64,000 bases of DNA, taken from NCBI GenBank assembly GCA_044892505.1, contig CM097883.1, forward strand, positions 159,836,001-159,900,000, written 5' to 3'. This DNA is from Schmidtea nova (Eukaryota). Shown here in pieces: positions 1,174-51,141 of the stretch. Position 1 is the stretch's first letter. Each line of letters begins with the position of its first letter. A program made the translations under genes and the position numbers. Below the pieces are notes generated by a model. The model was not told the DNA's origin and did no database searches. It saw only the letters and a program-made list of their open reading frames with translations.

Positions 1174-1950
1174 TATCTAATCTTTCTTTGTTCTTCATTA
1201 CTTTAAAATAGATATTTTACAGTTAAATATAATCGAAACCGCTAATATAAATATTTCATTCCTTTAAAATTTATCTATATTCCTCCTCAACTCAATCATT
1301 TATATCCTCATAGCTCCTCTTTGCGTTCATAATTTATGGATCAATCAAATTAAACTGAAATTTCATAACAAAAAATCACAATATAATACAAGAAAATTTT
1401 ATTTCTAAACATTTAACCCAAATTTTTCTCTACACACTAATGTGTCCAACTATATGAGCCATCTTTCTTAGTTATCGTCTTCTTCTTTCAGATCTTCCTG
1501 GATTTGATCTCTTCGCTTGTTTAGTGTGTAGTATTCCTTGTTGAAATGGTTGATGATCACTCGGAAACAATTCATTTTACCATAGATTAACAGTTTTATG
1601 GCCTTTGTGATCGCTTGCCATACAATCTCTTGATCTTGTGTAAACGCTTCCTAGCTTAACCTTAATAATTTCATTACAAGTTTTACTACCTCACGCTGAG
1701 CCATTCGTTTTCTTGAGAGCTTCTATCTGTTGTTGGGTTTTCTTAATTTTTGTAAGTTACTGGTAAACAACATTGACTGTTGTTATGGCTCCTATCTCTC
1801 AACAACCCTGCATATAAACATTAGTTAACTATGTTGTTAGTAAGAATAATTTTGTTTTCACATTTGTTAATTTAGATAATTATAATTTAAGAAGTATTTA
1901 TATACTTACAAGTTTAAATGCTAAATATAGAAATGAGTTTTCCTCTAAAA

Positions 1951-6300: not shown

Positions 6301-7398
6301 TAGTGGGTTGTTGACCTTCAAGATGACCTTGACGTTGTTATGGCTCCCATCAACAGCTCAACACATAAAACATTAGTTTAACCATTTTGTTGCCCATCAC
6401 AATGTAACGTTGGTAATGCAAAAATGGGTAAATGTCCGCAAACAGTGAGCATCGAAAATTCGAAACTATGATTGACCGAACATCTCAGTGGGTTCAATGG
6501 CTATCGATAGAAGGTTTAGTGTCCATTTTTGTCACAAATTTAACGATTAATCTATGAAAATTCTTTGAAATTTTTAGTAATAAAAAGAAATAAATTAAGC
6601 GCCTCGGAACAGCTCACTTCACGGTCCGCTCTATAATCTCACTAAACCGAATTATTCAGAAGAGATTCTAAAATATTTTAGTGATTCGATAGATATTTTA
6701 TTTTTTATTGACTTCATGTTGTTATTGACCCATCAATCTCAAATATGGCAAACGACACGTTCAAACATGTAAATGAACAAAACAATTTTGATACGTATAA
6801 TTAAGTAAGGAAAATATAAAAAACATAGAATATATATCAATTTACAATCGGAGTCATGATTTCAGTTATCGATGGATAAATCAATAGTCTCTACCGAGAC
6901 TTTCCAAAGTTGTCCCAGGAGCCGGTCCTCTTGTCACCGTTTTTGGCGGGCACGAACTCCTTTGCTCGGTAGCCACTTCTTTGGGCGATCTATTTTTGAG
7001 TTCTTTGGTAATTGAGCTGGGACGACAGGCTCCTCCATTCGTACTGGGAACAATTCTAACGCAAGAAATCCGGATTTTGATGGTTATGGTGCTGACACTT
7101 TGCCGGTATCTATTCTCATTTGGGCGATTTCGGCATATTATAAGCTTCAATGCCCGGATCTAAAGCGCGTCTCGGCTGTCTGCTCATGTGGCAGCTTGTT
7201 CTGCTTCTGCATCTTCTCGGTGCAATCCACATTCGTCCACGTTGATTCTATTTTTCGGCACCGAGAACGGAACTTCTTTATACGCTCCGTCATGGTCCAG
7301 AGCTCTTCCCAGAGAAACTTCCTCTCCTCCTCCATCTCGGCAACGTGGATTATTAATTTCCTTATGCTCCTTTTCGTCTTAGTCATCTGGGCCAACAT
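6301..7398 (-). mobile_element. Decayed LTR 3' part of a second (divergent) giant-type LTR family: ORF-B homolog plus U5 element
   Basis: Pseudogene 7398->6863 (one frame, 4 internal stops) homologous to the peptide at 57373-57611 (PKKWLPSKGVRARQKR*QEDRLLGQL vs PKRWKPSKGVRVRRKRRQEARLLGQL). It is followed by the ~230-nt element 6535->6301. Confidence 0.65.
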
Positions 7399-18446: not shown

Positions 18447-18681
18447 TGGAGGGTTGTTGACCGTCAATATAACCTTGACGTTGTTATTGCTCACATCAAC
18501 AACTCAACACATAAAACATTAGATTATCCATCTTGTTGCCCATCACAATGTAACGTTGGTAATGCAACAATTGGGTGGGAATTTGCAACCAGTGAGCGTC
18601 GAAAACTCGAAACTATGATTGACCGAATATTTCCTGGATCCAAGGACTACCGATAGAAAGTTTAATGTCCATTTTTGTCCC
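18447..18681 (-). repeat. ~230-nt dispersed element (U5-like LTR end of the second family)
   Basis: Aligns with 6301-6535 (-), 57839-58072 (+) and a partial copy at ~1774-1830. Ends ...CAACAACCC(T/A)CCA. Confidence 0.85.
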
Positions 18682-20646: not shown

Positions 20647-21030
20647 TGCTGGTGTGTTGGTTAGATTGACAACTGAGATCATTAGGATTTTATATGTTAG
20701 GGTGATCTCGCCAACATAAAAACATTCCCCCGCTGACACCCATGATGTATCCCTAACTACTCATCATGTTGGTGCTGTGTCAACGTTGTGAAATGACAAG
20801 GCAGGTGAGCAACCTTTCGGCTACTATTCCCTTGTTTATTCACGGGTCCGCCACTACCGATAGAAGGTGTCTGTGGCTTTCTTTCGGTCCCACTTATGCT
20901 CTTTTCTATTGTCCTAGGGTGATTTAATCTTAGCGCATCTGCAGTTTTTCATGAATCCGGGTTTTATTTATATTCAATTCTCAGACATTCCACACACAAA
21001 CAAGACAAGTCAAATCATTCGTTTTATACA

Positions 21031-21036
21031 TTTATT
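21031..21036 (-). promoter_or_regulatory. Putative polyadenylation signal in the LTR
   Basis: AATAAA overlapping the ORF-B stop, followed ~25 nt later by GU-rich TTGTCTTGTTTGTGTGTGG. Confidence 0.55.
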
Positions 21037-21613
21037 TATAGTTTAACAATACAGAGGGTCGGATTACATTTAGTAGTTCTTGCTCGGATAGACCACTGAG
21101 CAAGTCTACCTCTATTCCTACGCGATCTGCATATGCGCGTCTCTCCCTGCGCTTTTTCGCTCCCAAGCGATTCCGTCTCTTTGTCCGTTTCGAGCCTTCC
21201 AGAATTATTGGGGATGTTGTGGTAGTTGTGATTGGGATGGTTTCTATTTCCGTTTGGGTACTTGTTGTCCTCGATATTGTGTCCACCCACCGATTAAAGG
21301 TGCTAGCCCTGATCACTGGGCGTAATTGCTCGGTGATGAACTCCTGGGTTGATGCCCTCAAGTAATTCGACAGCTCCATCTTTAGTGCGGCGACCTCCCT
21401 AGCTTGCTCGTCGATTGTTCGTTCCGCCCTGTATCTGGCTTGTAAGATGGCTTTAACCCTCTCCGGATTAAACCATGTTGTCTTAATTCGCTGGTGCTCC
21501 TCATTCAGTTGTCTCAAGCGACTCTCGAGGACACGAGATCGTGCTCTATGTTCGTGTGACTCTTGCTTGTAATTTCGATTGGGATTTTCGTCCATATCTG
21601 AGTAATGTATCAT
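21032..21613 (-). CDS. LTR-encoded ORF-B, 193 aa, coiled coil plus Arg-rich motif
   Basis: Open in the 3' LTR; KRTKRRNRLGAKKRRERR basic tract; homologous pseudogene at 6863-7398. Confidence 0.75.
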   Translation of the reverse strand: MIHYSDMDENPNRNYKQESHEHRARSRVLESRLRQLNEEHQRIKTTWFNPERVKAILQARYRAERTIDEQAREVAALKMELSNYLRASTQEFITEQLRPVIRASTFNRWVDTISRTTSTQTEIETIPITTTTTSPIILEGSKRTKRRNRLGAKKRRERRAYADRVGIEVDLLSGLSEQELLNVIRPSVLLNYK

Positions 21614-21790
21614 TAACTAGGATATATATGCATTGTTTGGTTTCTCAGTCATCATTTTATGGTTAAACAACTGCATTCCTATCCTTACTCATTCCTCATA
21701 CATCCCAAATCAAAACAAAAACCCTTTTAAATGGATACATATATTTGCGATTCACAACAGATATTCGTTTATTGGGTGTTGTCCTCGTGA

Positions 21791-22423
21791 TCAATTGTAT
21801 GGTCGTAACTCTTGATTGGCCGGGTTCTCGTCTCGGCGAATCCCTGTTTCATGGTATAGTTCGGGGGCTGGATTCCAACTCAGTTTGTTTTGATAAATGA
21901 ACACCTCCCAGAGGCGAAGGTCTTTGGGCTCGGGGTGTTGATCCACGGAAACACTGCCTGGGGCATTCGGGTAAACGAAGACTTCCCCAGTGTCACCACA
22001 CCGAGGCCTGTCTAGCAGCAAATACCCGAGTTGGCCGAATGCCTGCCCGGTCATCATTCCGGTGCTTAGTACCCAGCGGGGTTGTCGTGTTTCATCTACA
22101 AATTGATAGAACCATCTCTTGTACCCATCTTTGGTGGGGTTCGGGGAGGGCGTCCAATCGACATCACCTTCCCACCTCAGCTGTAGTTGGAATGCACAGG
22201 CGGGAATACTCGCCGCGGTGCTCATATGGGTCCTTGTCCATCGACGCAGGTGTCTACGTGCGGAGTTGAAAATTTGGCGTGGGGCCTCCTTCTCTCCTTG
22301 GATTTCGGTAGGTACTTTTGGTGTGACGAGGGAGCGGATGCGCCGTTTCCTCCGTAGAATGTACTCCTCTAATTTGACGGTTAGGGGTTCTGTCGCATCC
22401 TTTACGAGATATTCTGTTTTCAT
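21791..22423 (-). CDS. LTR-encoded ORF-A, 210 aa, unknown function
   Basis: Open 210-codon frame in both LTRs, GC-richer than its surroundings, with RRKRR, its own AATAAA after the stop and CAG-A-ATG at the start. Confidence 0.65.
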   Translation of the reverse strand: MKTEYLVKDATEPLTVKLEEYILRRKRRIRSLVTPKVPTEIQGEKEAPRQIFNSARRHLRRWTRTHMSTAASIPACAFQLQLRWEGDVDWTPSPNPTKDGYKRWFYQFVDETRQPRWVLSTGMMTGQAFGQLGYLLLDRPRCGDTGEVFVYPNAPGSVSVDQHPEPKDLRLWEVFIYQNKLSWNPAPELYHETGIRRDENPANQELRPYN

Positions 22424-24092
22424 TCTGTCCCTCTGAAATGGAATTTTAAGTTAACTGACAGACTCTATCATCGACCATCGATATTTATGTCGATCAACCT
22501 ACTTGGTTTATTGTTCTACTGGCCGTAGGCCTTAGTAGTTCGTACATAATTTACTAGACTATTGGTCGCAGTGTTCAAGTAGGTGGTGAATTTACTTGGG
22601 TGAGTTGATACACTCCGCAATTTCAGTCGGTTTTAGCTATGCTCATTTAGGCTGATTATTTACAATCAGATTTTTCGTTACATTAAATTTCTCATCGATC
22701 ATTTTTATTCATCAAACCTGGTTCATTCACAGAGCATCATTAGCAACTATCAAGATTCACGTCGCGGGAAAAATTTTTTGTAATCCCTTAGTCGACTACT
22801 GTGTCGAGAAACGCACTAATTTTTATCTACTATCGGGTCTGACTTTTCATGCCCTTTGTGGGTTATATGTGTATATCTAACAGCTCATTCGGTTCACTAC
22901 TGTGCTTTGGTGCTAATGTCTTTTGACCGCGATGCTACGCTTTACCTACCTCAATTCTCGTTGATTTTTATGTACTAGCACTCCTTGAAGGTACACCCCT
23001 CGTCACGGTACCTCATGCATATATTTTCCCTTGCGAAATGAGCTTTACCTCGATTTTATTTATGACCATTAACTATCACTCGATACCCTATCATCGTGAT
23101 GTATAACGTTTATACTAGGTCATCTCTACCTTGATTTAGTTCCTGATCATTAGGTCTTACTCGATACCCTATGTGCATTTAACCCCTTCCGCTTTCCAAA
23201 TATTTAGTACACCTATAGTCCCGCCGCATCAGCACCTCACAACCGAAAGGTTGTGTTGCGCTGAGAGGCCCGAGAATCCGTCAGGCTGTTAGGCCTCCGG
23301 AAAACCTTATGGATTTTAATATGATTAACAATTATAATTATGAGGGTTTAAAGTAACAATCCAACACACAACAATTACCTTTTATTTTTCCTTCAAGTTG
23401 ATTTTACAATGTTCTCAGTGCTCAACTGCAAGATACACTTGGTAAAAATGACATTGTCAAATACTGATTTGACTTCAGTATTTATACTGAACCGGTGTTG
23501 TTGGTTAGCCAATCAGCATCGAGTATGTGTGTATGTTTGCTTCATTTTTCATGTTGTCGGCTTTTTGCTGCCTAACTTAACTTGCCGATTTGTTTGGTTA
23601 ATCATGCGGTAAGTTTTTCTTAGTCATCAATTTATTTTATTTTATTTTTGTTTTAGGTCTTTGGTGACATCCGCCCACGCGCTGTCATATTCCAATTTTA
23701 TCTGCTTCGCATGAGTGAGTTTTGAAGATTTTTTGTTGTTTTGATTTATATTTTATTTCTTTTAGATGTTGCCGCCTATTTTGTTACGCTTTGGTGTTGG
23801 TAATTTATTTTGTTGTTATTCTGTATTTAATTTATTTTATTGATTGTATATTATTTTCAGATGCTGCTCGATTTGGCTGGCCCAACATCACTCGGGGTCC
23901 CCTAAAATTGCGTCCCGCAATTACATGCATATACCTACATCAACATACATAAAAAGTTCGTGACAGAACTTACATGCAAAACCACATAAGGTGGTAGCTT
24001 TTATACACATTTATACAAAGTCACACATTGTCATTGTCATGTTTATATTGTTTATACACAGTTTCATGTTTCTGGCTCATAGGGGTTGATTT

Positions 24093-24617
24093 TCAGGTCC
24101 TTTCACTGGTTGACTGCATTTCGTATCGGGCTTGGATTTGTCGTAGATGACTTCTCATCCTTTGTTGGGTTTTTGCTTCTCTTTTGGCGCATCTACACAT
24201 TATCGTTTGTTGTTGTTTGAGGCTTCTGATTCGGTACAGGGTATAGGTAATCACGATGATCAGGATGATTGTCAATATTGTCATTGTGACTATTCCAACG
24301 ATGATCCATCTGTTTCGGATTTCGGATTCGATTTGGGTTTGACCTTTGATTGGCTTTAGGTGATCTTGAAATGTTTTATGGATTTCTCGGATCTTCTCGA
24401 TTTGACTGAATAGGGTTTGTAAGGGTTTGCGATGATCATGACTGATCCTCATTTGTCGGATTAATTGTTTCAAGTCTTCTCTGACTTCGTTTAGTTGTTT
24501 TTCGATCTCTTGGGATATTTCGTTTGACAGGGTTCTTTGGATTTCGGTTGTCGAACAGTTCATGATTATTGCTGTTAACATAATCGTTAGGATTGATAGG
24601 ATTTTGAGCCAGATCAT
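24093..24617 (-). CDS. Cargo ORF, 174 aa, predicted type I membrane protein
   Basis: N-terminal hydrophobic signal, coiled-coil ectodomain, TM WIIVGIVTMTILTIILIIVITYTLY, basic tail. Confidence 0.75.
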   Translation of the reverse strand: MIWLKILSILTIMLTAIIMNCSTTEIQRTLSNEISQEIEKQLNEVREDLKQLIRQMRISHDHRKPLQTLFSQIEKIREIHKTFQDHLKPIKGQTQIESEIRNRWIIVGIVTMTILTIILIIVITYTLYRIRSLKQQQTIMCRCAKREAKTQQRMRSHLRQIQARYEMQSTSERT

Positions 24618-24690
24618 TTCTGATTATTCTACTGATTAATACAGGTTACATCGATTTGTACATTTTTACACACGGATTTTTCGCCTCTTT

Positions 24691-25851
24691 TTACACATCC
24701 GTCTCCTCTGGTTCATGGAACCCTTCGTCTTGGAGTTCCATTGGTGGTGGTGGTATAAATGGTAACCACACCACTATACTTCTCCACATTGCAATTTCAT
24801 CTTGATACGTTCGAGAGATTTGTATCTCTTCATCTAACAGATACTCCATATAGTCTGATTGTTCGCTTAGAGTTTCGATTTGTCTTTCCATTTCTTCCAC
24901 TTTCCTCTTCAGGGCTTCTGTTTCTGTTGGTCCGGTTTCTACTTCTATGGTTTCTTTCTCTGCTTTCAGGGTTCGTATTTGTTGTTTCAGTTCCTCGTTT
25001 TCTTTCGTCAAATTCGTTATGTTTTCCTCGTAAGCTCGGTTTGATTCCGCATGTCTTTCTTTCACTGCTTTCAACTCCATTTTCTTTTGAGTCACCACCC
25101 CTTGATAACCATTTACATCTCTTTCCAGACTTTCTTTTTCCCTGATCAACTTTTGTCTTTCCACTTCCTCTTTCTGTCTAATGCCTCGCATTTCTCCATT
25201 TATCATCTGTATTTGCCATTGCGTTTTCTTTAGTTCCTTTGCCTGTTCTCGAATAAATCGCTGTCGTTTTCGACTCCATTCTTTGTTTGCTTGTTCTTGT
25301 CGTTTTCTCTGTTCCAATTCCTCTTTCAATTCGTCTATCTCTTGATATAATTTCCAATCTTTGCTGTATGCTGTCCTTCCGATTATCTCTTTGGCTTCTT
25401 TATACACTCGTTTCGACTCCATCTTCCAATGTCTCGCTTGAGTTTTGATTGCTAGTATTTTTACCTCCATTTTTTCCTCTTGTTTCTCCCTCTCTTCTCT
25501 TCGCGTTTTCTTCATATTTTTATAATGTTCTGCTTGTTTTCTCATCAATTGATAGGTCTCTTCTATCTTCTGTCGACTTCGTACATTCGTTCCTTCAAGC
25601 TTCTCTATTTGTGTTGTCAGTTGTACTATCTCTTTATTCACTTCCTCGAGTTCCAGTTGATATAACTCCATTTGTCTTTCGCATTTTAGTTTCTCGTAGA
25701 AATTGTTTGTCATTACTTCGTTTAATTCTCTGGTTCTTTGTTCCACTTCCATTTTACATCTACTTTCGATTTCTCTTTCTATTGCTTCTCGTTCGTTCGC
25801 CATCTCGTTTCTCGTTTCATCTTCGATTACATGTTCATTTGCGTTTTCCAT
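24691..25851 (-). CDS. Cargo ORF, 386 aa, long coiled-coil protein ending -ETDV
   Basis: E/K/R/Q-rich heptads over most of its length; C-terminal PPPP and EETDV. Confidence 0.8.
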   Translation of the reverse strand: MENANEHVIEDETRNEMANEREAIEREIESRCKMEVEQRTRELNEVMTNNFYEKLKCERQMELYQLELEEVNKEIVQLTTQIEKLEGTNVRSRQKIEETYQLMRKQAEHYKNMKKTRREEREKQEEKMEVKILAIKTQARHWKMESKRVYKEAKEIIGRTAYSKDWKLYQEIDELKEELEQRKRQEQANKEWSRKRQRFIREQAKELKKTQWQIQMINGEMRGIRQKEEVERQKLIREKESLERDVNGYQGVVTQKKMELKAVKERHAESNRAYEENITNLTKENEELKQQIRTLKAEKETIEVETGPTETEALKRKVEEMERQIETLSEQSDYMEYLLDEEIQISRTYQDEIAMWRSIVVWLPFIPPPPMELQDEGFHEPEETDV

Positions 25852-25940
25852 TCTGTAATTTACAAATTTACGCTTGTTATACTATATGTTTATTGTTGTC
25901 GTCGATTTTTACACTTTATTTACAGGGTCGTTCACTCTGA

Positions 25941-27353
25941 CTACTCTAACCATCCTTTCGTTGACTTCGTGTTCATCACTGTTGTACTTGTTTTCTTTTC
26001 GATCTCCAACTCTACATATAAGTTGTCGTCGTACAACATTTCCCACATTGTTTGGTGTGGTATGAATTTTGGTTCTCCAGTCGCTAATGAACATTCTGTG
26101 GTTGGTCTTTTGTAAGCTTCGTGCTTACCATCAATCTTGAATACTCTCGCTATTGTTTCTTTCGAGTTTCTCACTCTCATTATAGCCTTTGTTTCTAGTG
26201 GCCATTCTAATATGTCGTCGTAACCACCTTTACACAACGCAAAGAATAATGACACATGCGTTTCCTTTCCTGATCCATCTCCATTTGGATAAATTCTCAT
26301 CCGGACTTTGTATCCGTTTTTCCACAGATAGAATGGTGGACTTGTTACCGACACTTGACTTCCTGCTTTTGCTGCTGTGAACTTTTCGTTGAAGTTCTTG
26401 ATTTTCCATATATATGGTGCAACAGGTAAACTCTCGATATCCTCTGCATCTCGCACCCACATTTGATGTCGCACGTTTACTTCTTTTACTAGCGTCTCTA
26501 TGACTTTGATTTTCTCCATCATTTTCTCTCTGGTGAGCTCGAATAGCTCTCTTGTTTCTAGTAACAGCTCCGTCATTATTCTCTGAGATTCGATTTCTTT
26601 TCCCAGCTTCTGTATGGTTTGTTCCATTCCGTTCAAATTTGCTGTTAACATCTCGGCGTGTTGTACTGTTTCCGTTTCCAAATGCTCTTTCATCTCTTTG
26701 CTCGTTTTCTTTACTACACATCCTTGTTTACTCCATACGCACTTTCTTGGTCTTGATTCGCACTGTTCCCAATGTTCTCTCAACATCACTTCTTCTCCGG
26801 TTCCGCAATTACTTGGACAAATTCCTCTGAATTTTCCACACACTTTCTCTTCTGCTACGTTGAGATGTTCTGTTTCGATTATCTCTCTTGTCTCTCTTTG
26901 TTCGCAGTATTGACACTCTATTATCTCTGCTTTGCACTCATCTTTGTGATTTTTCGACTGCTTGATGGTTATCGTCTGTTGACACTTTTCACATATCGCT
27001 TTCTTGTTTTCACATTTCCCCAGATGTTGTCTTAACTCGATTATTGGTCCTTTCCATTCACATGGTTGGTTTGTACACTCTGTTTTTATCTTCCAGATCT
27101 CCTTTTGGATTGCTTTGTCTGGTTTCGTCTCGTTGATTAGTAGTTTATCGTCACACTCTGGACATTTTCTTGTCTCACTTTCACTGATTATTTGCAATAT
27201 ACACTTGGTGCACATCCTGCATCCACATTCCGTTTGTCTCGGTTTTAACAGTAAATTTTTACACTTTACACACGTCACATTTACTCCCCATTGTCGATTC
27301 TCTCCTCTTAGAATCTCGATTGTTTGGTAATCTGCTTCGTTTTCTGCTCTCAT
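25941..27353 (-). CDS. TRAF: Cargo ORF, 470 aa, TRAF-like protein (RING, TRAF zinc fingers, coiled coil, MATH)
   Basis: RING CVKC..KPRQTECGCRMCTKC..CPEC; Zn finger CTNQPCEWKG..HLGKC; MATH YIWKIKNF...SPPFY...GYKVRMRIYPNGDGSGKETHVSLFF...YDDILEWP. Intronless. Confidence 0.93.
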   Translation of the reverse strand: MRAENEADYQTIEILRGENRQWGVNVTCVKCKNLLLKPRQTECGCRMCTKCILQIISESETRKCPECDDKLLINETKPDKAIQKEIWKIKTECTNQPCEWKGPIIELRQHLGKCENKKAICEKCQQTITIKQSKNHKDECKAEIIECQYCEQRETREIIETEHLNVAEEKVCGKFRGICPSNCGTGEEVMLREHWEQCESRPRKCVWSKQGCVVKKTSKEMKEHLETETVQHAEMLTANLNGMEQTIQKLGKEIESQRIMTELLLETRELFELTREKMMEKIKVIETLVKEVNVRHQMWVRDAEDIESLPVAPYIWKIKNFNEKFTAAKAGSQVSVTSPPFYLWKNGYKVRMRIYPNGDGSGKETHVSLFFALCKGGYDDILEWPLETKAIMRVRNSKETIARVFKIDGKHEAYKRPTTECSLATGEPKFIPHQTMWEMLYDDNLYVELEIEKKTSTTVMNTKSTKGWLE

Positions 27354-27443
27354 TCTACAACAATATTTACATCAATTTCCCCATGTTTTTGATTTTTTCT
27401 GGTTCTTTATTTACACGTATTTACACAATTTTCCGCTTATTCA

Positions 27444-27794
27444 CTATACATCCTCAGTTGAATCTGGCTCTGGATACACGTCTATCTCATTTACAATCCA
27501 GCTCGTCCAACTATCTGGTATCTCTTCCTCTTCATGTCTCGTTAATCTGTCAATTTCTTCTGCTTGCCAGTTGTTCACTTCATTCAATGTTCGGTTCTCG
27601 TTCTGTAATTCGTTTATCTGTAGTTGTTGAATCTCGATTTTGTTCATTGCTTCGAAATTACAGTTATAACTCTCGGTTAATAATTGCGTTTTTGCCGTCA
27701 ACTGGCTCTGTAATTCATTTACTGTTCTGGCTAGCAGGTCACATTGTACTTTCCATCTTGTCATCATCGACATCTCTGTGGTTCCTTGATTCAT
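27444..27794 (-). CDS. Cargo ORF, 116 aa, short coiled-coil protein
   Basis: Heptad pattern; acidic C-terminus YPEPDSTEDV resembling the end of the 386-aa ORF. Confidence 0.65.
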   Translation of the reverse strand: MNQGTTEMSMMTRWKVQCDLLARTVNELQSQLTAKTQLLTESYNCNFEAMNKIEIQQLQINELQNENRTLNEVNNWQAEEIDRLTRHEEEEIPDSWTSWIVNEIDVYPEPDSTEDV

Positions 27795-27916
27795 CGTTTT
27801 TCTAGATTATATACATCATTCTCTTTTTCTGTTTTTATGTTTTATAATATTTATACCCATACGTATACGGTTATGCATTGGTTTTTACACTATTATTTAC
27901 ACTCATATTCCACCCT

Positions 27917-30900
27917 CTATACAACTATTACTGGTTTTCCTTCGTACAGTTCCTCGTCCTCGATCTGTACCCACATCTCTTCGTGTTTTGATCGTCTTTT
28001 CAGCTCTTCTCGTACTTCTTTTGGTAGTTTTATGTTGTAATTCGTGACCTTTACGTCTGGCCATTTTACTGCTATGGTCTTATTTCTCATGCCATATCTC
28101 CAACATACTATCATGATCGTTATCAGCGGTATACACCCTATGAATACTCCCATGCTGATTAATCCCATTATTGTTTTCCCAATGCTCATCTTCGGAGTTT
28201 CACTTTGGTTTGTCATCACGCCATATTGACCTTTCCATTCTGCTTCCCATTGTTCATATTGTTGTTGTCTCTGTCTGACTTCTTCGATCACTTTCTCTGG
28301 TTCCCATCTTTCTTGTTGGTTTGGTAATTTTTCCTCCTTCTCGTTTTGTTCTCTCTTCTGACTAAATTCTCGGAATTCTAACTTTTTGATTCTCCTCTTT
28401 ATCGGCGTGTAATAGGTTTCGCACCTTTCTTGTGGATTTCCTTGTGCGTCCACTTCTTCGATTGCACACACTTCGTATTCTGCGTTTGTTTTCAACTTCC
28501 TCATTTCTACCTCGATTATTTCTCCTTTATCATTTGATGTCTTTTGACAGTTTCGTGGGGACTTTCCCATACTGTTTGGCATTAATGTCCAACAGATTTC
28601 TAGGACCTTTTTATGGATCTTCCATATTATCAACGTTGTTGATTCCGGTTCTTTTTCTATTGTCGTCCTTTCTGTTGTTACCTGTTGAACTCCTTGACTG
28701 TTGGCTGTCGTGGTTCTTCTTGACTTTCTTTTCCTCTGTCGACTTCTTCCCATTTCGATCGTTCTTGTTCCGTTAATTTGCTCTGGCGTCTTGTACAGTT
28801 TGCACTCCAGGCTTCTTTGTATTATTTCTCTTATTCTTCGGATTACGCAGATTTCATATGCTTGTCCGACTTCGAATCCATTTAGTTGAAACGGGATTCC
28901 TCGTTCTCTCGTTCTGCATTGCGGTATTACGTTGCTGGTCGGTACTCCGATGTATTTTCTCCAACACATCCCAATTGTTCTCCGACCAATGCTTTTTATC
29001 TCCACGGTTACTACTTCATTCGCAATCGTTTCTTGATCTTGTTTCTTTCTTTTTGGGAACTCAATGATCTCCTTTGCTTGGAACACTTTACACTCGCTTG
29101 TTCCTGGTCTGTTTCCGTTTGCTGCTTTTTCCATGAGACATAGTTCACATTTTTTATCTGTCTCTATTTCTGTTATTTCGATTTCTTCATTTGTCTCTGC
29201 TTCCCGACTTTCTCTTGTCTCGCTGATTCCAATTACTTCATTATTTCGTCCCCAACATCTTCCATTCGTTGTTCGTTGATCTTGGATGTTTACTAACGTC
29301 ATCACGCTGATATCTATGTCTTCCATGATTCTCTTAATGAGGATTAATATTAATGCTACACATATCAGTTCTGGTTGGAATGTTAATTTTCCCGCTGGAT
29401 TTTTGGTTATTCTTTCTTTCTCTGTTCGGTTTCTGATTCCTTCTTCTGCTTCCGATTGATTCTTCCCTTTCTCCGATTCCACTTCTGTTCTTCTCGTTGT
29501 CTCTTCACTTCTTTTCCCAATCCATTTCTGTATCTTCAGCGCTTCCGTTGCTTTGTATAATTGACAGGCAGTTACTTGAGGTGCTTTTGGTTCTCCTCTC
29601 TGCTTTACTGCGCATATTATGTATGACTTTTCTTTCTCCAACCCTTTGATTTGGATGACGTCTCGCTTCAAGTCTGACAATATACATTTCAGCGTATCGT
29701 TTTTCTTCAGGTTTTCTTTCCAGCATATTCTTTCGTATACTTCGTTTCCTCTGATTATTTCCAGCGTGACGTATTGTTTCTTGGCTTCGCCTTGTCCGAT
29801 GATCGTTATCAATATCGCAATACACAACATTTCCGGTCTCAAAAGTAGACTTCCTGCTCGTTTTCCATAGTTCGTACTTTCGTCTTTTGTTCCTCTGTTT
29901 TCTCGTTCTTCGGCTTCTTCCTTTTTGTCGTTTCTCGTTGGCTTCGGTTCTTCTTGTCTTTCTTTTTCATTATCCTCCGTTCTTTTGTTGTCATTGTCTT
30001 CGTTGTTCTTTTCGTTGTTACTTTTGTCGTCGAAATCTTTGTAACCACCCCCTGGTCCTTTCGAAATGTCGTCCTCGACATTAATTTCTTTAATCAATCT
30101 TTCATACGCTTGAACCGCGAGTGTGCTAGACTCGAATTCACGTATTTCCATATCCTTGGATGGTTCTATGTTTTCTAGTCCACTTTGCTTGATCGTTTCT
30201 TTGGCATTTGCCCATTCATTCACATATTTTCTGAACAAGTCTTTCCATCTTCCCGTTCGTTCCTGTTCTTTTGGGTTGTTCGTAAATTTCAAATCTCTTC
30301 TCTTCAAGAATTCTTCTACTATCTCTGGCTTTTTGTGTCTTAGTAACGCGCTTCTGATACACCAATTCTGATTCTGTTCCATATGGTCATTGATCTTGAA
30401 CACTGGTTCCTTGGTGATCGGATTCACCCATGTTAGTAATGCTCTCGTTTTCTCTATGTCGTGTATCATTACCGTCAGACTGAAATTCTTTACGTTATTC
30501 GCCAGATATTCGATATCATCTTGTTTCTTGATGGACTTTATGAACTTGATCATCTCGAAGTTGTTCCACTGTATTGCGATATCTATGATGGAATTATTCT
30601 TTCCATTTTTCTCTTCGATTTTTGCTCCTGCTTCGTATAACTCGTTTAGCACTTTCAACTTCGTCTTCTTCCTTGCTGCGATTATCATGATTGTATCTCC
30701 ATTATCATCAACCGTATTCATGTCTGCTTCGCACTTGACCATCGCTTTCGTTATTTCTAGCGCTTCGTTTTCTTTCTTTCGACGTAATGCCCAGTGTATC
30801 GGCAATCTCCCATCCTTTGATAATAGGAATGTTACTGGCATTTGATTTTTGATCGTTTCTATGTCACTCTCGTTATAATCTCCTTGTGCGTATCTGTGCA

Positions 30901-33900
30901 CTTTCTCTGTAATTGCTCCTAGTATCTCCAACGAGTTTTTATTCTCCTTGAATTCTGATAGTCTTTCCTGCGTTTTTGCTACGATTGCGTCTAGTCTCTC
31001 TTGATTATCAGCTTTTGCATTGAACAACACTGCTTTGCTTCTTATTCGCGTTTGCATCTGTTTCATTCGTTGGTCTTGATACACTGCTTGTCTGAAGAAT
31101 TGTCCATACTTCAATGCTTCCATCAGCTCTTTATATCGCTTGCTTATTTCTTTGTGCTGCTTTTGGATGTCATAAAAATGTTCGAAGCTCATATCCGGAT
31201 TCCATTGCTTATCGCACCATTTCTTGATTAATCCGAATAATTCTTTCTTTCTGTCTTCCAACTTGTATTCTCTTGGGTTCTCGCTGACCCGTAGCGTATC
31301 TCTCGCTATTAACACTGCAAGTGTTTTTGGATCGTATGTTACTTCTAGTAGATGTTTCAGTAACGCATTTTCTCCCTTTGTGAATACTTCATTACAATCT
31401 ATGACCCACGAATCTCCTTCTGGTCTTTTCCACTTTAGCAATATCCTCCAGGTTTTACTGTTCTTTACCCCGATTGCTTGTTTCATGATCGATCCTCTAG
31501 TTAGTTCATCGATTTCCCACGTGGCATTTTCCGTAATATACTTCAGTATTCGGTGATTCGCTCTATCAATTGCATGATTCAGGAACGTTCGTCCTTCTTT
31601 ATCTTTTGCCATCCAACTCGATCTGGTGTTTCCGAATAGCTCGACTATTTCCTCATCTCTTCCATGAATCGTCATCATCATAAGTGGAGTGATTCCTTCC
31701 CAATTCACTTTGTCAATTTCTCCTCCACCTTCGAGTATCATCTCTACGATCTCTTTCACTTTTTCGTTCCCACTGTGCTTGATTGCATTGTGCAACGCGG
31801 TGTTACCGTCTTTGTCTTGTAGATTCAATGTTTGAGGGATTTCCTCTAGCAGCGTTCTTGTTATTGGATGTGCTGTTCTATCCTTCGCATAATCCATTAC
31901 ATTCTTTCGAACTTCTGACAGTATATTGAAATCGTGCCACCATTTCCATTCTGGTATGATTTCTCTGGTCCTCTTTGCCAGTTCTTTGATGTTTATTGCT
32001 TCTCTTCGGTTGTCTTCTAGACTTGTTTGCAGCTTTTGTTGTACTCGCAACATATTAATTCTCGCCGTCTGTGATCTTGTCATCACCCTTTTCTCTGGTG
32101 ATAGAGTTGCTGTCTTTGGTATTTTTCTGCATCGACATGCATTCACGTATATTGGTCTTACCAATGGATTGTTCACCAATCGTACTCGCACATTGTTTTC
32201 GTTTACGGTTGTTATTTCGTATGGCCCTTTGCCTGGTCGTTGGAGTTTCTTGACCGTACCGGGTATTATCTCTGGTGTCTCGATTATCACCCAATCTCCA
32301 ACTTTTAAATCATGTGCTTTCACATTCTTTTTCTGATCATGTAGATCCTTATAACTCTCTTGATAGAACTTGATGTTTAGTTCCGCCGTTTTCCAGATTT
32401 CTTGCATTCTTTCTTTGAACTTTGTAACGTAATCGTCAACCTCCATGTATTGTGATAATGGTGGTTGGTATTCTAAATCGATCGGTAAGTTGCAATCTCT
32501 TCCGTACATCAGTTGAAATGGACTTAGCTTTGTTGCCGCATGTATTGACATTCTATATGCCATTAAACACAAGTTGATGTATTCGTCCCAGTCAGTCTGA
32601 TGTTTGCTGACGTAATTCGACAACATGCGTATCAATGTTCCATTGAACCTTTCTGTTTGACCGTTCGTTTGTGGATGGTATGGGGATGTTCGTAATTTCG
32701 CAATTCGGAAGTAATTCGTGACTTCGTCTAATATCTCACTCATGAAATTTGTTCCTTGATCCGTTAGGATTTTCTTTGGTGTTCCGTATCTGCAGCATGT
32801 CTCTTCCACCAATATTCTCGCGACTGTTTTCGCTTTTTGATCTGGTATTGCGAATGCTTCTGGGAACTTTGTTAGATAGTCCGTGACTACTAAGATATAT
32901 TGATTCCCCTTTAAACTTTCTGGCAGTGGCCCAACTACATCCATGGCTATCGTCGCCATTGGTTCTGCAGATATTGGCATTGGTTTTAGTGGTGTTTTCC
33001 ACTTCGTTCCGACGTTCTTTCTTGTTGCACAGGTTAAGCAGTTCCTTATCCATTCTTTCACATCATCTTCCATGGTTGGCCAAAAATACTTTTGTCTCAA
33101 TCTCCCGATTGTCTTTTTCGCTGACATATGTCCGCCTAATTTTCCGTCATGATATTGAGTCATGATTTCCTTTCGCCTATTCGCAGGTAAGCACATTAAT
33201 CTCCGTTCTCCATCTTGTATCAATAACCATCCTTTTTCCATCACGTATCTATGTTGGTATTTTTGCATATGTTCGCGCAACGTTTGGTTCTTGCCGAATA
33301 TTTCTATTTCCCTTTCTTTCAGATACTTGCTGATCAATCCCAACTCCTCATCTTCGAGTTGATCCTTCCTTAATTCGCTGAAATCCAGATCTTCCGCTAT
33401 TAGTGCACATATTTTTAGAGCATTCAGGTTCACCAACTCCGGAAATGTAAACCTTGACATGCAATCTGCGTTTGCATTTGCTTTTCCTGCTTTAAACTTT
33501 ATGAATGGCGAGTATTCTTGCAACTGCATTGCCCAACGCATCAATCTACTTGATGATTCTTTATGTTGACCTAACCATACTAGCGGTTGATGATCCGTCG
33601 TGATATATATTTCATGACCCCACAGTAGGTACTTGAAATGCTTGATTGCCAATATTATCGCATAGGCTTCTCTTTCTGTGACTGAGTAATTCCTTTCATG
33701 TTTTCTGAACGTTCGACTATAATATCCGATTACTCTCTCTTTGCCTTCTTCATCAAATTGGCCTAGTACTGCTCCTGCTGCATATCCACTTGCATCTGTT
33801 GCCAACAAAAATGGCTTCTTAAAATCTGGATGGACCAGTATTGGTGCTGTAATCAGCTTATCTCGTAATGTTTCAAATGCTGCTTGCTGTTCTATTCCCC

Positions 33901-36900
33901 ATATAAACGACACATCTTGTCTTACCAATTCTTGCATTGGCTTTGATATTCCTGCATAGTCCTTGATGAATTTTCGATAATATCCACACAATCCCAAAAA
34001 TTCTTGTATTTGAGTTACTGTCTTGGGTGGTGGACATTCTTTAACTTTCTCGATATTTCTTGGATCTGGTTCTTTTCCTTTTGCTGATACAATGTGACCT
34101 AAGAATGTCACTTTCTCTTTTGCCCAATCGCACTTTGACGGCTTCAATTTCAGCTTCCATTGCCTTAATTTCACGAACACATTTCTGATGTCTTGCAAGT
34201 GATCCTCGAATGTTGCGGAGTAGATCAATAGATCGTCGATGTACACCATGCATTGTTTTATGCCATGTGTTACGAAATTCATGCATCTCTGGAATGATGC
34301 TGGCGCGTTTGTTAACCCAAACGGCATTTTCTTGAATTGGTACAGATCTCGTCCGATTGTAAATGCTGTCTTCTCTTTATCCTCGTCTTTCATTTTGATC
34401 TGCCAATATCCGCTTTTTAAATCTAGTGACGTGAAATAAGCTGCTCCTTGTAACGTCAACAACATTTCGTTTATGTCTGGCAGTGGGTACGTATCTCTTT
34501 TCGTAACTGCGTTCAATCGTCTGTAATCGATACAGAATCTCTGAGTTCCATCCTTCTTTTTCACCATCACCACTGGGAATTGCCAGGGTGAGCAACTAGG
34601 TTCGATGACCTCTGCATCTAACATCTTTTGTACCTCTTCTTCTGCCACTGCTTTTTGAGCTTCTGCCAATTTGTATGGTCGTAATGCTATTGGCGTTTCG
34701 TCCGTCAACGGTATCGTGTGTAATGTTACATCACAGGTTCCCAGATCTAAATCTGATGCTGCGAATATATCTTTATATTCCATCAACAGTTTCTGTAACT
34801 GTTCTTTTTGTCGTTCGTCCAACAACACACTGTCGATTTTCCATGGTAATTCGCCTTTGCTTTTCTCATTCTTGTCTGGTATTTCGATTTCGGACATGGG
34901 TGTCAATTTACCCAATCTCTCATTCTCGTATATTATCTTGTCCTCTTCGTCGAAATTTACCAGATTGATCGGTATTTCTCCTTCTTGATTTATCGTAACC
35001 AATTCTCTTGCCATTGGTAATTCTTTCTTTGCTTCGAACTTTTTACTTGGTTCGAATATCATATCTCCTTTGATTGTTGAATCGATCTTGACATAGCACA
35101 TCATTTCGTGTCTCGCTGGCACTACTATTTGTTCCGCACTTGCCACTTTAACTTTCATCCTGCAGATTTTTCCTGTTCTATCTTTTAGTTTCATTGCTCC
35201 TAGATCAATTACGATTTCCTTGAACAGGTCGGGCATCAGGTCAGTTCCAATAATACATGGTACACTCAGCGATGGTATTACAGCGATGTACGTGTCGATT
35301 TCTGCACCTCGATGCTTAATTTTTACAAACCATCTTCCGGCTACTTCTACTGTCTCTTGACTGCACGCGATTACATGTACGTTCGTCTTCTCAATTTCTC
35401 CTTGGTTTTTCTCGGGTATATAGTTAATGTCGATTGCCGAAATATTCGCGCCTGTATCGATCATTGCTTCAATTTCTCTTCCGTTTATTTCTACGGTTGT
35501 TGTTAAGATTGGTCCCATGTTTGTGGACATAACCGCTATCGTGTGCGTGTCTTCCAATGAGTCTACGCTTTTACCTCGTTTTACTTTGCATCCTTCTGGA
35601 ATTATCGGGTATATACTTGTCATCGGCATCATCTGCATCATATTCGGCTTTGCTTTATATATAGGTTCGTTATACATTGACTGAGGTGGAGCGCTGTATC
35701 TCCAATTCTCAACTGTACTCTTTTCGTTGTATTGTGGAATCTGGTTTATATTCGCTTGTCCTCCTCGATCGTCATCATCATCGTCATCATTACTTGAATC
35801 ATCTTGTGTTCGATATCCTCTCACTCTTTCCCATAATCCTTTCCTTTCCTTCTTCAGTTGTCGTCTTGCTTGTTCATCTTGCATTATCTTTTTGAATTTT
35901 CTTCCGACATCTTCGTTAGTTCCTTTCATTTTTGCAAGTATCTTCAACAACCTCTTTATTCGATGTATGTCTTTCGAGTGTCCATGTAACACCATCGTTT
36001 TCGCAAGGAATGGTAAAAACCCTACTACCATTTTCCAATTCACTTTCTTTTCTCTCTTGTAGATATCGAAACACGCTAACATTTGCGTTATTATCACTCT
36101 GACGATTTGTATTATCAATATAACACCCAGTATTCCAGCCATCATTTGTCCAAATATCAGGAATCTTCCCCACATTGCCTTCATCATATTTTCTGTGGCC
36201 TTCTTGAAATGTGCCGGTGACAACAACAGTTCGTAATTCGGTCCTTCTCGATAATTCGTTCCTCCCGTTATCGTTACGATATTTGACAGTAATGCTTCTC
36301 TTCTTGCCGGGAATAATATATTCTGTCTTGCTGCTTCCAGATCTTTTGGACTATAGATTCCGTTGTTTGAGACATCTACGTCACTGAACTGTCTATCCTT
36401 TGACAACTGCATTAGCTCAAATTCTCTTGGTGCTAATACTTCAGTTCTTCCTGGGAACATGACCCATTTGCCATCTGGCTTCTGATAAAGCGGTCCGTAC
36501 GCGTTACTACAGTTGAATGGATTTGGTTCAAAACCTGGTGGATTGATGATTCTCGTCACCGGTTGAACGTATCGTACTTTTCCTTTGTAATCGATTTCTA
36601 GTTCGTTTGTACATTGTCCAGGTTTCAACTGCGTTGTTGCTGCTAGCGATGCGTGTGTCTTTTCGCAAATGTATACATACATTGCTTCTCCGACCACTCT
36701 TCCGAAATGTCCTTCTCTCAGTGGTAATAACGGCATCGCGCTATCTGGATTCGTAATCGCTACGGCCAACTTTGTCTTCAATATTTCTCGATTCAGTATA
36801 CAATCGTTATTTATCAGATCATAGTACACTTTTTGCAATGAGGCTTGACCTCTATGGAATAAGAAATCCATTTTATTATTCACATACAAGTGTAGCTTGA

Positions 36901-39900
36901 TATCCATTGTGTCGATCTTGGGTTTCGCATTCGGCACTTCTTGTTTCGACACGTATATTCCTGGATAGTTTGTTTCGTATACTGTTGTACTGCACTTAAG
37001 GGTTGCTTTCCCTTTTATGAATCTCATGCCTACATCCTGATTTGTGGTTATCAACACTGTTGGTGTGGTTCTCATCTCTATTCGTTTTTCTCTATGATCT
37101 GGTTTCAATTGTCTTTTATTCTCTAAAGCCTCTTTGAGATGTTTTGCTCTAGCTTTGTCATCATCGTCTTCTTCTTGGAAGGTTTTTCCTTGAATTTCGT
37201 CGAACTTTGCTCCTTGTAGCAGTTGTAATTGACATTCGTTCACTTTTGGTTTATACACCAAAGTTGACATTCCCGTTTGACACATGCTTCTGTCAATTTT
37301 ACACATGGATAACGTTTTCATTTCTCCTGTTGTTGGTTCGAAGAATGCTTCGTAGCTTTTCAGTTCGACTATATACGTATCCATTACCACTAAGTTGGTT
37401 GCAGGTGCTCCAAATATCGGATAGGTTTCTCCTTGACAATATCCTTCTCCTCCCGTAATCCGTCCTGCTACATAATACGTCTGCTGCAACATCATTCCTG
37501 GCTTTCCTTTTATCTTGATTTTGTCTCTCGTTGTCACTTCTCCATGTTTGAATAATGCTTCACAGTCTTCTCCTTGTAACACGATTGGTTCTCTTTCGGT
37601 TCCTGGCATGACAATTGCTGAATAATGTCCTCTACCACAATAGAATGCGAATCTCGTCTTTTGCACTTTGCATTCATTCACCATTGTCTTTATTAGTTCT
37701 GCCTCTTGATATACGTGGTACCATTGTTCTTTTTTGATCTCTTTCAATTCTACTGGAGTTGCATCTTTGCATTGCTCCGTACCTCTCAATGAGTACTTTT
37801 CTCCCAACTTCATTTGATCACAGTCAAATACTTCAAATGTTGTTACACCCTCTGTGCTTAACAACCATACTAACATCATCATGATTATCGAGTTTAAATT
37901 CAACGTCGATCTCCCGTTTCCTTGCATCGTTTGTCTATTCTCCATTTCTCTCAATACTCCTTCGAGTTTCTTTCTCATAACGTTAGACCCTTCTTTTGTC
38001 TGGTTCTCTTTTATGAACTTTTCCCATCCTCCTTTTCTGAGGATATATGGTTCAATTTCCTTCTCGATAATCATCGCCGTATTTTTAATATGTCTTCCCA
38101 TCGGACTTGACTTCGGGCTTCCTCGGCTTAGCGTTAACAAATTGTATATTGTATACGCGATTGCTACCAGATATTTGCTGTCCGTCTCTGCTCCGTTAAG
38201 TAGCCTTTTTATCAACATCGTGGTTCCTTGCCAATCTAGATGATTCGATTTTGTTTTTGCCTTTATCAATTCTGGCATAATCGGTGCTATTGCATTGTGT
38301 AGCATCCTTGCCTTTGTACTGGGTTCGTTTATTCGCCACAAATTCTTTAATTCCGGGTCAATTATTGCTAACACATCCATTATCGTTTTGGTGAGCCATT
38401 CTTCTCCTTGGCAGACTTGATTCTCTTCTTTTCCTCTGATTTCTGCGATTTTATCCAGTTTCTTCAAGCAAATCTCCCATTGCTCTTGTCTCCTTTCTTC
38501 CCTTGTCTTTGGGATTGTTGTTGCTGGATCTATCTTTGGTCTTCCTCTTGGTCGTTTCTCCATTCCCGTTCCGGTTTCTACAAATCTCGCTGCTCTTCCT
38601 GTTTCCTCTGTAACATCTCTTCCTTCGTTCGCTCGCTGTTCTAACCATCTTTCCATTTCTTGAGTAAACTGTGGTTGTTCTTGTTCGTCTTCCGAATCGT
38701 TTACCATTTCTATGACTACCTCCTGTTCCACTCCTTGATCGTCGATTTCTGCTGGTGACGTTATTGGCATCTCTACTATTCTGTCAAAAATGTTCGCCGT
38801 TGGTTTTTGAGTCAGTTTCGTTAATTCTTCTATCGCTTCGTCACTGTCTGTTAGTATCTCATCCACGTCATACGCTTCTGGCGGTGTTCTCTCTCTCGTT
38901 TTTATTGGTGTTGTCCTTGCTTGTCCCGAACTTGTTCCTGGGGTCATTGTTGACTTCATCGGACTTGGTGTACTCATGCTTCCTTTCGCTTTCTTTTCCT
39001 CTTTAAACTTCAGTGGTTGACCCACTATCTGTGCTACTGTTAACGTATTCATTAGATCCAATTGCACTGGTGTCAGCCAGATTTCCAAATTATTATCCAA
39101 CGATCGTCCTTGATGTTGCAGGTGGAATGGTAGTTCGTACATCAGTTTCTCTTTAACGCTTTTCACTTTTTCTGTTAGCATCACCCGAAACTCTTCTTTT
39201 CTTTGATTCGGATACATTATCCTCAAATGTATTTTCTGTGGCGTTTCTTCTGCAAACTCTTTGTTTCTCCACTTTTTTATTACATCGTCTAGTTGCTCTG
39301 GACACCACTCGTTAACTCTCTTGTATTCTGCTATCGCTTTAGCTACTTTTCTCAAGTTCGTTATGTCTTCTCCATTTGTGATTATGAATTGTGCTAAGCC
39401 TTTTATTGTTTGTCTCTTTCCCCGAGTATTTCCTCTCAATAGCTCGATCAATTCACTCGTTTTCTGTTTCTCCAATTCTGCCCATATTGCTGCAGTTTCT
39501 GGTCCGTCTAAGTCCGTTGGTAATAACCTCCTTGTTACCATACATATCCGTTTCGTATTCCGTTCGTGTCTGTCTTCTCCTTCCGGATCTTCTTCGTACA
39601 CGCCTCCTTTCACTTTCCAACATTTCTCTTTGTTATCCCATTGTTTCTCTACTGGCGTCAATCGTCGTCTGTTAAGATCCAATTCTCCCAAGATTGTCTC
39701 CCATTCTGGCTTCATCTGCCAGTTCCGATAGATTTCTACTATCTGCCTCAGCTTACGCATAACGTCCTCTTGTCGTTTCTTTTTCCTTTCCTCATCTCTT
39801 GGTGTTGCTCTTTGCACATCATCCATTCTGATGACATGTATTGTCTGATAATTATCCCATATGCCGATTTTATACGCTCGTCTTTCATCACGTTCATTCA

Positions 39901-42208: not shown

Positions 42209-42244
42209 GTTTCTTTTTCCTTGTTCTTCATCTTCTGTCGTTTT

Positions 42245-42802
42245 TCACATTACCGCCGTAATTCTCATGTCGTTCATTGCCATATGCAATTCGAATAGGT
42301 TGGCTGCCTCCAACGCTTCATCTACCGTTTTACATCCTTTGCATCCCACTTGTGCTCTGATGTCAGGTCTCCTGAGACCTCGTACGAATAACGCTGTCAT
42401 CAATTCTTCGTCTACTGGGCTTCCTCTATTGAATGCCAGTTTCGCCAACTTTCTTAATTCACTTGCGTACACCGCATTTGACTCATTTCTCCTCTGTTTT
42501 CTTGCTGAGAACTCATCGAATGCTTCGTTCAACACTTTATTTATCCCAAACGTCTGTTGGAAGAACTCCTTGATTGCTTCCCACGTTCTGGGTGGATTAC
42601 TTCCCGATCTCTTCTCAATATACAGATCCAATGCGCTATCTTTCAAGTATAGCGGGATTCGATTCGCTAACGTTTCTGCACTCCATCCGCATATATCCAC
42701 GAATATGCCAAATTCCTTCAGGAACGTGTCCAATCTACTGGCGTCTCCATTAAATGGTTCGCCCTTGAATTTTTCTCTTAGATCCTCTCTGTGATCACTC
42801 AT
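42245..42802 (-). CDS. gag: Gag capsid domain of giant element, in frame with the polyprotein across one TGA
   Basis: Retrotrans_gag-like (PFNGD...TWEAIKEFF...RKQRRNESNAVYASELRKLA...LFVRGL). TGA at 42245-42247 is followed by 12 sense codons and then the polyprotein ATG. Confidence 0.88.
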   Translation of the reverse strand: MSDHREDLREKFKGEPFNGDASRLDTFLKEFGIFVDICGWSAETLANRIPLYLKDSALDLYIEKRSGSNPPRTWEAIKEFFQQTFGINKVLNEAFDEFSARKQRRNESNAVYASELRKLAKLAFNRGSPVDEELMTALFVRGLRRPDIRAQVGCKGCKTVDEALEAANLFELHMAMNDMRITAVM

Positions 42803-44141: not shown

Positions 44142-44468
44142 CCCTCCACTTACTCACTTTACTTTGCTACTCCTCCTTGTATGCATACTTTAACATCATT
44201 AGGCCACATAATCAGCTTTACTCGCATTTATCAATACCCAGGTGCGCACCTTCAACTCTCTCGTTATTAATTCGGTTTCTTTCAACCCTTATTCCTCATT
44301 ACTCGCTATTCATTTTCACTATTCATCATTTATCCTCATTATTATTTATTCATCTCCATTATCGCTTGTTGATCTTCACTATCCGGATAGTTTTATGCGT
44401 AATTTAGTCCTCATCTGCCTCACTTCGTCGTCTTTCTCGTGGGCTTTTACTCAATATTTTATTTCGAA

Positions 44469-46780: not shown

Positions 46781-46786
46781 AATTTA

Positions 46787-51076: not shown

Positions 51077-51141
51077 ATCATAATCTAAATCAAATGTTAT
51101 ATACGGAAACAGTAATGACGTAATGGCTATGATTTAATGAG

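Follow-up and report, generated by a model that had tools for sequence, protein, structure and literature searches.

A conserved structured RNA core in the long terminal repeats of Burro-type giant retroelements of a planarian, with a candidate role in packaging and priming

What do the LTRs of a giant retroelement share with a scatter of shorter LTR-like sequences lying in the same 64,000-nt stretch of Schmidtea nova DNA (here termed the window), and what might the shared part do? The original prediction proposed a unit of ∼230 nt, built of colinear blocks common to both giant LTRs and to copies dispersed through the window, and took it for a conserved structured cis-element or an unrecognised ribozyme.

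The giant element, which we term family A, occupies 20647..50028 on the minus strand (29.4 kb). Self-comparison of the window delimits its 3.24-kb LTRs (5′ LTR, 46787..50028; 3′ LTR, 20647..23887; both on the minus strand), which are 99.75% identical across 3242 columns, and the whole is flanked by a 4-bp target-site duplication, AGTG. A primer-binding site (46762..46780, minus strand), 6 nt beyond the 5′ LTR, is complementary over 19 nt to the 3′ end of tRNA-Pro(TGG), and a gene for the matching tRNA is present in the same genome. The domains found are gag, fusion glycoprotein, protease, reverse transcriptase (RT), RNase H, integrase, ankyrin and TRAF. One frame of 4,775 amino acids carries a zinc knuckle, a Monjiviricetes-type fusion glycoprotein, protease, RT, RNase H, integrase and ankyrin; gag has its own open frame just upstream, and TRAF/MATH its own frame downstream. 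On sequence criteria (size, LTRs, target-site duplication and polyprotein) we assign family A to the Burro-type giant Ty3/gypsy elements, since its layout matches the description of planarian Burro in the available text of PMC6431247. A protein search with the RT region returned Ty3/gypsy proteins; among the 120 matches listed of 237 the closest were polyproteins bearing a fusion protein (50–56% identity), and none was a named Burro protein. The search with the gag frame found no homologue beyond its own genome.

Two open frames lie inside the family A LTR, at 21032–21616 and 21791–22450 on the minus strand, and are repeated in the 5′ LTR. Neither has a Pfam match; the former has weak matches (30–34%) in the LTRs of families C and E, and its stop codon overlaps a candidate AATAAA. 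The leader contains an array of a 19-nt unit (44457–45099), with 15 near-perfect copies at 44468–44752 and decayed ones adjoining, whose sense strand holds the complement of GCTCAC, one of the shared blocks, ∼20 times. This array is absent from six leaders of other families, each of which has an array of its own, and we rejected pairing between GCTCAC and leader repeats as a general feature, having seen it in one of seven leaders, that of family A.

A covariance model of the core, the ∼150-nt conserved part of the shared unit, finds five full copies in the window at 78–123 bits, while the rest of the window scores at most 11.4 bits; three of the five were included in training, the copy at 46859 is identical to a training row, and the copy at 57857 was unused. 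All five copies that the original prediction had named are thereby recovered. Those in family A lie on the minus strand at 46859..47009 in the 5′ LTR (the copy expected in the RNA leader) and at 20719..20869 in the 3′ LTR, each scoring 122.6 bits. The other three belong to older LTR 3′ ends of a second family, B, at 6301..6535 (core 6373–6516, minus strand), 18447..18681 (core 18519–18662, minus strand) and 57839..58072 (core 57857–58000, plus strand). No primer site follows any of these three, and their 5′ ends were not located in a test for solo LTRs because their upstream parts have diverged from young LTRs; for the 18447 copy a weaker likeness to B LTRs runs on to about 19484. A further partial copy, predicted at about 1774–1830, proved to be real (1769..1838, minus strand; its alignment with 18471–18537 was matched by none of 500 shuffles), although it is a terminal fragment of a family B LTR that gives no covariance-model match and lacks the structured core.

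Direct comparison says less. The local alignment score between the giant LTR and one dispersed copy was equalled by 10 of 1000 dinucleotide shuffles, which is marginal, and blastn gave no link between them; their homology, as judged from sequence, rests on many intermediate lineages. Copy alignments bear out the predicted hairpin between TAGT and GCTCAC as described. The colinear blocks do form a homologous unit, although two of them, CAACGTT and CAACA.GATG, do not align between the families in the register given: in the giant LTR, CAACGTT lies at the base of the bulged stem, and in the dispersed copies it makes up the CCAAC bulge and upper stem. The shared end of ∼230 nt, which takes up the last 245 nt of each giant LTR, is real, but its conserved part is the core, followed by a variable terminal hairpin.

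Near the other end of the unit, a GACC-containing motif lies 30–40 nt upstream of the first hairpin (20886–20891 in the window, GGGACC in family A) and recurs in many lineages, with the exception of family C. B subfamilies part from one another immediately upstream of it, so the motif may be a boundary, for instance the beginning of the region that is shared. Contigs of the sequencing runs X1 and X2 placed on 20400–21300 pile up over the core, many diverging at 20891, and we do not count them as independent support.

The window also holds other repeats. An 844-aa RT frame (51142–53676, minus strand) is enclosed by direct repeats of 582 bp (98.6%), accompanied by a short inverted piece, in an element at 50980–54236 that we take to resemble the Penelope type; the Rfam search of the window detected no hammerhead there. 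A second, small LTR element at 9257–13061 encodes gag, RT and integrase between 100-bp repeats at 9262 and 12815, and has a partial copy, 90% identical, at 55068–57373; the covariance model finds no core in either. The stretches 2000–3949, 15739–17414, 58571–59032 and 60113–61480 contain a 649-aa transposase-like frame, gag and protease fragments of another LTR element, an exon of a major vault protein and the remnant of a mariner transposase whose inverted ends measure 31 bp.

The nature of the dispersed copies is clear from their relatives elsewhere in the genome. The 30 best genomic matches to the 18447 copy have a sharp common end, unrelated 3′ flanks and varied 5′ flanks. A genome search for the primer site gave 2,991 matches (0 for the control), and among 30 primer-site loci (29 places) the sequence directly upstream was family B in 18, a third type, family C, in 11 and family A in one. 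Elsewhere in the genome the family B end is followed by the primer site and occurs twice around an internal region. Since the same sequence stands directly upstream of the primer site in 18 of the 30 loci, we identify the dispersed copies, on sequence grounds, as LTR 3′ ends of the sister family B, as had been predicted. Many different upstream regions are joined to this one LTR end.

Six full-length B elements were found, and all carry the core. In five, tblastn found nothing matching gag, fusion protein, RT, RNase H or integrase, while the sixth encodes gag and pol, 48–53% identical to those of the window's element. In one of the elements lacking gag and pol the LTRs are 99.95% identical, from which we infer that it was copied recently, presumably by proteins supplied in trans. 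Young non-autonomous B elements measure about 18–22 kb between LTR ends and have long frames for a protease-ankyrin protein of ∼1,050 amino acids and a coiled-coil protein, with TRAF in four of five; a clade that lacks gag and pol and keeps host-signalling domains may be of interest in itself. In one family E element, whose LTRs are 99.9% identical, gag, fusion protein, protease, ankyrin and TRAF are all retained, and there was no match to the RT–integrase section.

A 15-base spaced pattern, TAGT..GCTCAC..CCAAC, has 18,533 matches in the genome, compared with 76 for the reversed control. Among fetched loci, 319 near-full matches fell into 88 clusters at 88%, and the 82 cluster sequences scoring at least 44 were aligned for covariation tests; sampling of loci was biased to the start of contig C1 and to the patterns chosen. 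The core begins 224–277 nt upstream of the primer site in 80 of 80 sampled loci (a few being the same place counted twice), and all sampled primer sites are for one tRNA, tRNA-Pro. On contig C1, near 459.6 Mb, tRNA-Pro(TGG) genes are repeated in tandem with a period of 308 bp, and the pattern has 1,106 matches in the genome. The core motif spans dozens of lineages whose polyproteins are 52–65% identical and whose LTRs are otherwise unalignable, in at least 18,500 genomic copies.

Where the core falls in the transcript depends on the polyadenylation site. In the window a candidate signal with a GU-rich stretch lies at 20991..21040 on the minus strand (AATAAA within 21031–21040, GU-rich 20991–21008). 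Across 79 copies AATAAA peaks 100–120 nt upstream of the first hairpin, with 19 and 12 occurrences per 20-nt bin compared with 3–11 in other upstream bins, and T-rich words come just after the peak. Because these signals lie upstream of it, the core would be part of U5 and hence present at the 5′ end of the RNA only. It is upstream of the primer site, as U5 demands; the putative polyadenylation site is placed from AATAAA enrichment.

Is the core conserved beyond its surroundings? Mean pairwise differences per site, gaps counted, were 0.00–0.01 in the core and 0.33–0.52 upstream among primer-adjacent copies of family B (n = 50), and 0.00–0.02 and 0.16–0.45 among those of family A (n = 18). The mixed group C (n = 15) gave 0.15–0.28 in the core and 0.4–0.7 in its flanks, and within families A and B the differences rose to 0.5–0.6 in the leader. 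Conservation merely equal to that of neighbouring LTR sequence, which would have spoken against the prediction, is therefore not what we see: 0–2% in the core compared with mostly 20–50% in the flanks. Old copies behave differently. In family D (n = 20), singleton changes per site in the core amount to 0.015 in A/T columns and 0.021 in G/C columns, compared with 0.016–0.019 and 0.027–0.030 in the flanks; in family B (n = 30) the values are 0.007 and 0.015, compared with 0.004–0.014 and 0.019. Since old copies decay in the core about as fast as in the flanks, the constraint operates during replication, and selection acts on the replicating element rather than on a host function of inserted copies. 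We rejected a MITE or a host non-coding RNA as the source of the likeness: the core is part of LTRs, its old copies decay like their flanks, and it has no Rfam match.

The core is predicted to fold into three domains, given here for the 3′ LTR copy on the minus strand. Hairpin 1 (20856..20868) is a short stem with the 7-nt loop UUCUAUC; in family A it has a probable extension, 20873–20877 pairing with 20850–20854. A conserved linker, G(A/G)ACCC (20843..20849), complementary to the 5′ strand of the tRNA-Pro T arm, leads to the long arm (20788..20843), with two lower helices, an invariant internal loop TAGT/GCTCAC, a 4-bp tip helix and a GAAA loop. The third domain is a bulged stem (20728..20788), in which a lower helix is followed by a conserved CA-N3-CCAAC bulge facing GGG, an upper helix and a UAGGG loop. 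Beyond the core, at 20647..20716, come the variable terminal hairpin region and the LTR end; here a CCCTA (20697–20702) may pair with the UAGGG loop in family A, a pairing absent in family B.

RNAalifold, applied to 36 copies with no structure given, returned 27 pairs, 22 of them with double changes. A 34-pair structure is 87.7% paired, compared with 69.9% for shuffles and 35–39% when slid along the alignment, and contains 261 cells with double changes compared with 86.5 in the control. A further 56 matches (50 loci) are 83.1% paired compared with 69.3%, though they were aligned to the model and are hence biased towards it. Because these controls ignore relatedness, alignments were simulated on an inferred tree, and all column pairs were scored by a G-test with APC (our own script, not R-scape). 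With 36 rows, two of 10,470 pairs reached E < 0.05, both inside the structure; with 82 rows one of 21,528 did so and two more reached 0.09, the top nine all being nested complementary pairs. Support is better at the level of helices. When stacked 4-bp helices among the 82 copies were compared with the best null helix, four beat 100 of 100 nulls and a fifth beat 99 of 100, and the next nine did not beat the nulls. The supported helices are three in the long arm, around TAGT/GCTCAC, and two in the bulged stem, around CA-N3-CCAAC facing GGG. Hairpin 1 is not among the helices that beat the tree null; its pairing in a plain permutation test (66 of 80 and 54 of 80 paired) was reached in none of 2000.

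The swaps observed include U-A/A-U and G-C/C-G, compensatory changes that CpG decay, the alternative raised in the original prediction, cannot produce. G-U pairs are modestly above A-C (185 and 134). Single-sequence folds predict the long arm in six of six young copies (z −0.96 to −3.47); three of nine folds, two of them from old window copies and one from a young copy, are no better than shuffles (z −0.96 to +0.6). TAGT/GCTCAC and other invariant bases cannot show covariation, and pairs drawn within the internal loop are unproven. Judged from these alignments, the core is a conserved structured RNA, with helix-level covariation beyond relatedness and weak support at the level of single pairs. 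With helices that covary and a core more conserved than the LTR around it, the structured cis-element of the original prediction is borne out.

Several additional features were rejected or proved to be unsupported, wholly or in part. For a closing helix around the whole core, 191 of 200 permutations were as good, and an alternative in which the GG that follows the 7-nt loop pairs with the CC of the linker is weaker than hairpin 1 itself. On direct reading, only families A and B have a workable self-complementary dimer site at hairpin 1, and a possible splice donor upstream of that hairpin, GTAAGT, is not fixed even within a single family, where ATAAGT also occurs. The pseudoknot between the loop and CCCTA averages 4.48 bp compared with 3.58 for shuffles in the 29 of 82 copies that could be parsed, and is hardly lineage-specific, cross-lineage partners giving 4.20 bp and 19 of 300 permutations being as good.

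What, then, is the core for? Three lines of evidence lead to the reading that we prefer: variable helices with fixed loops, tight spacing to the primer site and retention in elements without gag and pol. The core is likely, with a probability of roughly 55%, to be a cis signal, read in trans, for the selection of RNA by Gag and Pol in packaging and in setting up priming. The proteins of an element would pick their own RNA via the core, packaging being coupled to the loading of the primer; the invariant internal loop and the bulge would be the protein contact sites, the helices merely holding them in place; and a single shared signal would allow helper elements to copy the non-autonomous families. 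As expected of a packaging signal, the core is kept in the five of six B elements that lack gag and pol. Against this, in many retroviruses the packaging signal is located mainly downstream of the primer site, whereas the core lies upstream, and the non-autonomous B elements keep long accessory frames, so that a role in export, stability or translation fits too.

That last role would make the core a binding element for a host factor acting on the long unspliced RNA, like retroviral transport elements, in which a host protein binds to internal loops. Invariant internal loops on variable helices are typical of protein-binding sites, and elements that keep long reading frames would need such a function; we nevertheless regard it as quite unlikely, given that no Rfam family of such kind matches, that the first long frame begins at least 3.6 kb downstream of the core, a great distance for an element acting on the start of translation, and that its distance to the primer site is so tightly kept. 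It is unlikely, too, that the core is a primer-activation device and nothing else, in which the linker pairs with the tRNA-Pro T-arm strand freed by annealing at the primer site, and the 7-nt loop, starting with UUC like a tRNA T loop, holds the linker until the tRNA arrives. Such pairing has been reported for HIV-1 and predicted for HTLV-1, which is primed by tRNA-Pro (available text of PMC11251516), and the linker does match the complement of the T arm over 6–7 nt, and of 74 copies 67 have A and 7 have G as its second base, both able to pair with U; the sampled primer sites are all for the same tRNA. Yet the duplex energy clearly beats shuffles in only two of ten copies, both from family B (4 and 6 of 300), 15–122 of 300 shuffles being as good in the remaining tested copies; the A/G change is also the commonest mutation; the loci sampled include no lineage with another primer; and the two large arms are left unexplained.

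Four separate invariant strands on covarying helices, with a possible pseudoknot, might also suggest a ribozyme of an undescribed class, self-cleaving or RNA-processing, which every Burro lineage would carry in its LTR to act on its own transcript. HDV-like ribozymes form a nested double pseudoknot, with P1 between P3 and P1.1 and the catalytic C in J4/2. Mapping the core onto this fold fails on spacing (in one lineage group hairpin 1 and the linker are only about 2 nt apart, too close for P1 to fit between them), on the catalytic C (none is conserved before the 3′ strand, in the place of J4/2, in the tails compared) and on the closing helix. Rfam returned nothing at gathering score in the window, and two chance matches only at E ≤ 5 in 14 loci; the ribozyme half of the original prediction, as far as known classes go, is not supported. 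Self-cleaving ribozymes are common in retroelements (available text of PMC6765202), but cleavage inside U5 would presumably cut the template for the first strand transfer, and we consider an undescribed class very improbable. Least probable of all is a feature of the DNA, such as downstream promoter motifs or integrase sites, or a likeness kept by recombination, with no RNA fold. LTRs do hold promoters, several blocks are short near-palindromes by direct reading, and family B shows many upstream regions joined to one end; but compensatory swaps link strands 30–60 nt apart, and of 69 parsed copies 27 have a GNRA tip loop on the sense strand and 1 has the reverse pattern; both observations indicate single-stranded RNA. 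Covariation between lineages is not something that recombination can create, and the sequence on either side of the core varies.

If the core is the packaging and priming signal that we propose, its sharing would explain how abundant derivatives that lack gag and pol and keep TRAF and ankyrin frames are copied. RNA signals that act in cis can seldom be aligned between families of Ty3/gypsy elements. In work on flatworm TRIMs, packaging signals are described as hard to identify, with only structure conserved (available text of PMC4558846). The core is a well-defined, probe-ready RNA family absent from Rfam, and with its covariance model all Burro LTRs could be counted and dated by a single tool. 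Burro1 is reported to support stem cells during regeneration (cited in the available text of PMC13465017), so a signal controlling the spread of Burro would matter to that field.

Beyond this genome, 78 metagenome and three viral Ty3/gypsy loci (455 kb, many loci being without LTRs) gave no model match. In viral contigs the strict pattern had no match and a loose pattern at least 120; the 80 listed give no model match above 11.9 bits and are, by this measure, chance matches. We found no RNA structure in Burro LTRs in the literature covered, the 2018 genome paper that named Burro and the 2026 Burro1 paper being outside its scope.

The closest known system is planarian Burro itself (GYPSM1), described as ∼30 kb long, with multi-kb LTRs, one frame of ∼4,800 amino acids and tandem repeats in the leader (available text of PMC6431247). 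The window element shares with it the in-frame fusion glycoprotein before protease, RT, RNase H and integrase, the ankyrin repeats, MATH/TRAF and the leader tandem repeats, and differs in having a separate TRAF frame downstream and a separate gag frame upstream; that description, in the portion available, covers proteins and mentions neither LTR RNA structure nor non-autonomous families. In function the nearest parallel is Ty1, in which the first 326 nt of the RNA carry packaging and priming signals used in helper-driven mobilisation, and in which a structured 5′ region near the primer site (5′ TIPIRT) is required in cis for packaging and priming, mini-elements included (available text of PMC5454406). 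Ty1, however, is a copia-type element whose domain is a pseudoknot with kissing hairpins, whereas the core lies wholly inside the LTR, and no sequence or fold match between them is shown. Extended tRNA pairing has been described for Ty1 and Ty3 (PMC5371799, text available in part). The primer activation signals of HIV-1 and, by prediction, HTLV-1 are likewise short motifs upstream of the primer site and complementary to the T arm (PMC11251516, in part); the linker differs in lying ∼200 nt upstream, in its 6–7 nt length and weak energy, and in being set within a 150-nt fold. HDV-like ribozymes of R2 and related retroelements (PMC6765202, in part) also have a short stem and a 7-nt pyrimidine-rich loop followed by GG. 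In the core, loop positions 5–6 differ, the closing helix is unsupported and Rfam gives no match. The double-hairpin packaging signal of gammaretroviruses and the epsilon signal of hepatitis B virus place covarying paired hairpins, or a bulged stem, close to the 5′ end of the RNA, where they serve packaging or priming; the resemblance is of architecture only, Rfam being negative for the core. Set beside these systems, the core appears from its sequence alignments to be a new RNA motif family of a known kind, the retroelement leader signal, with good covariation at the level of its helices.
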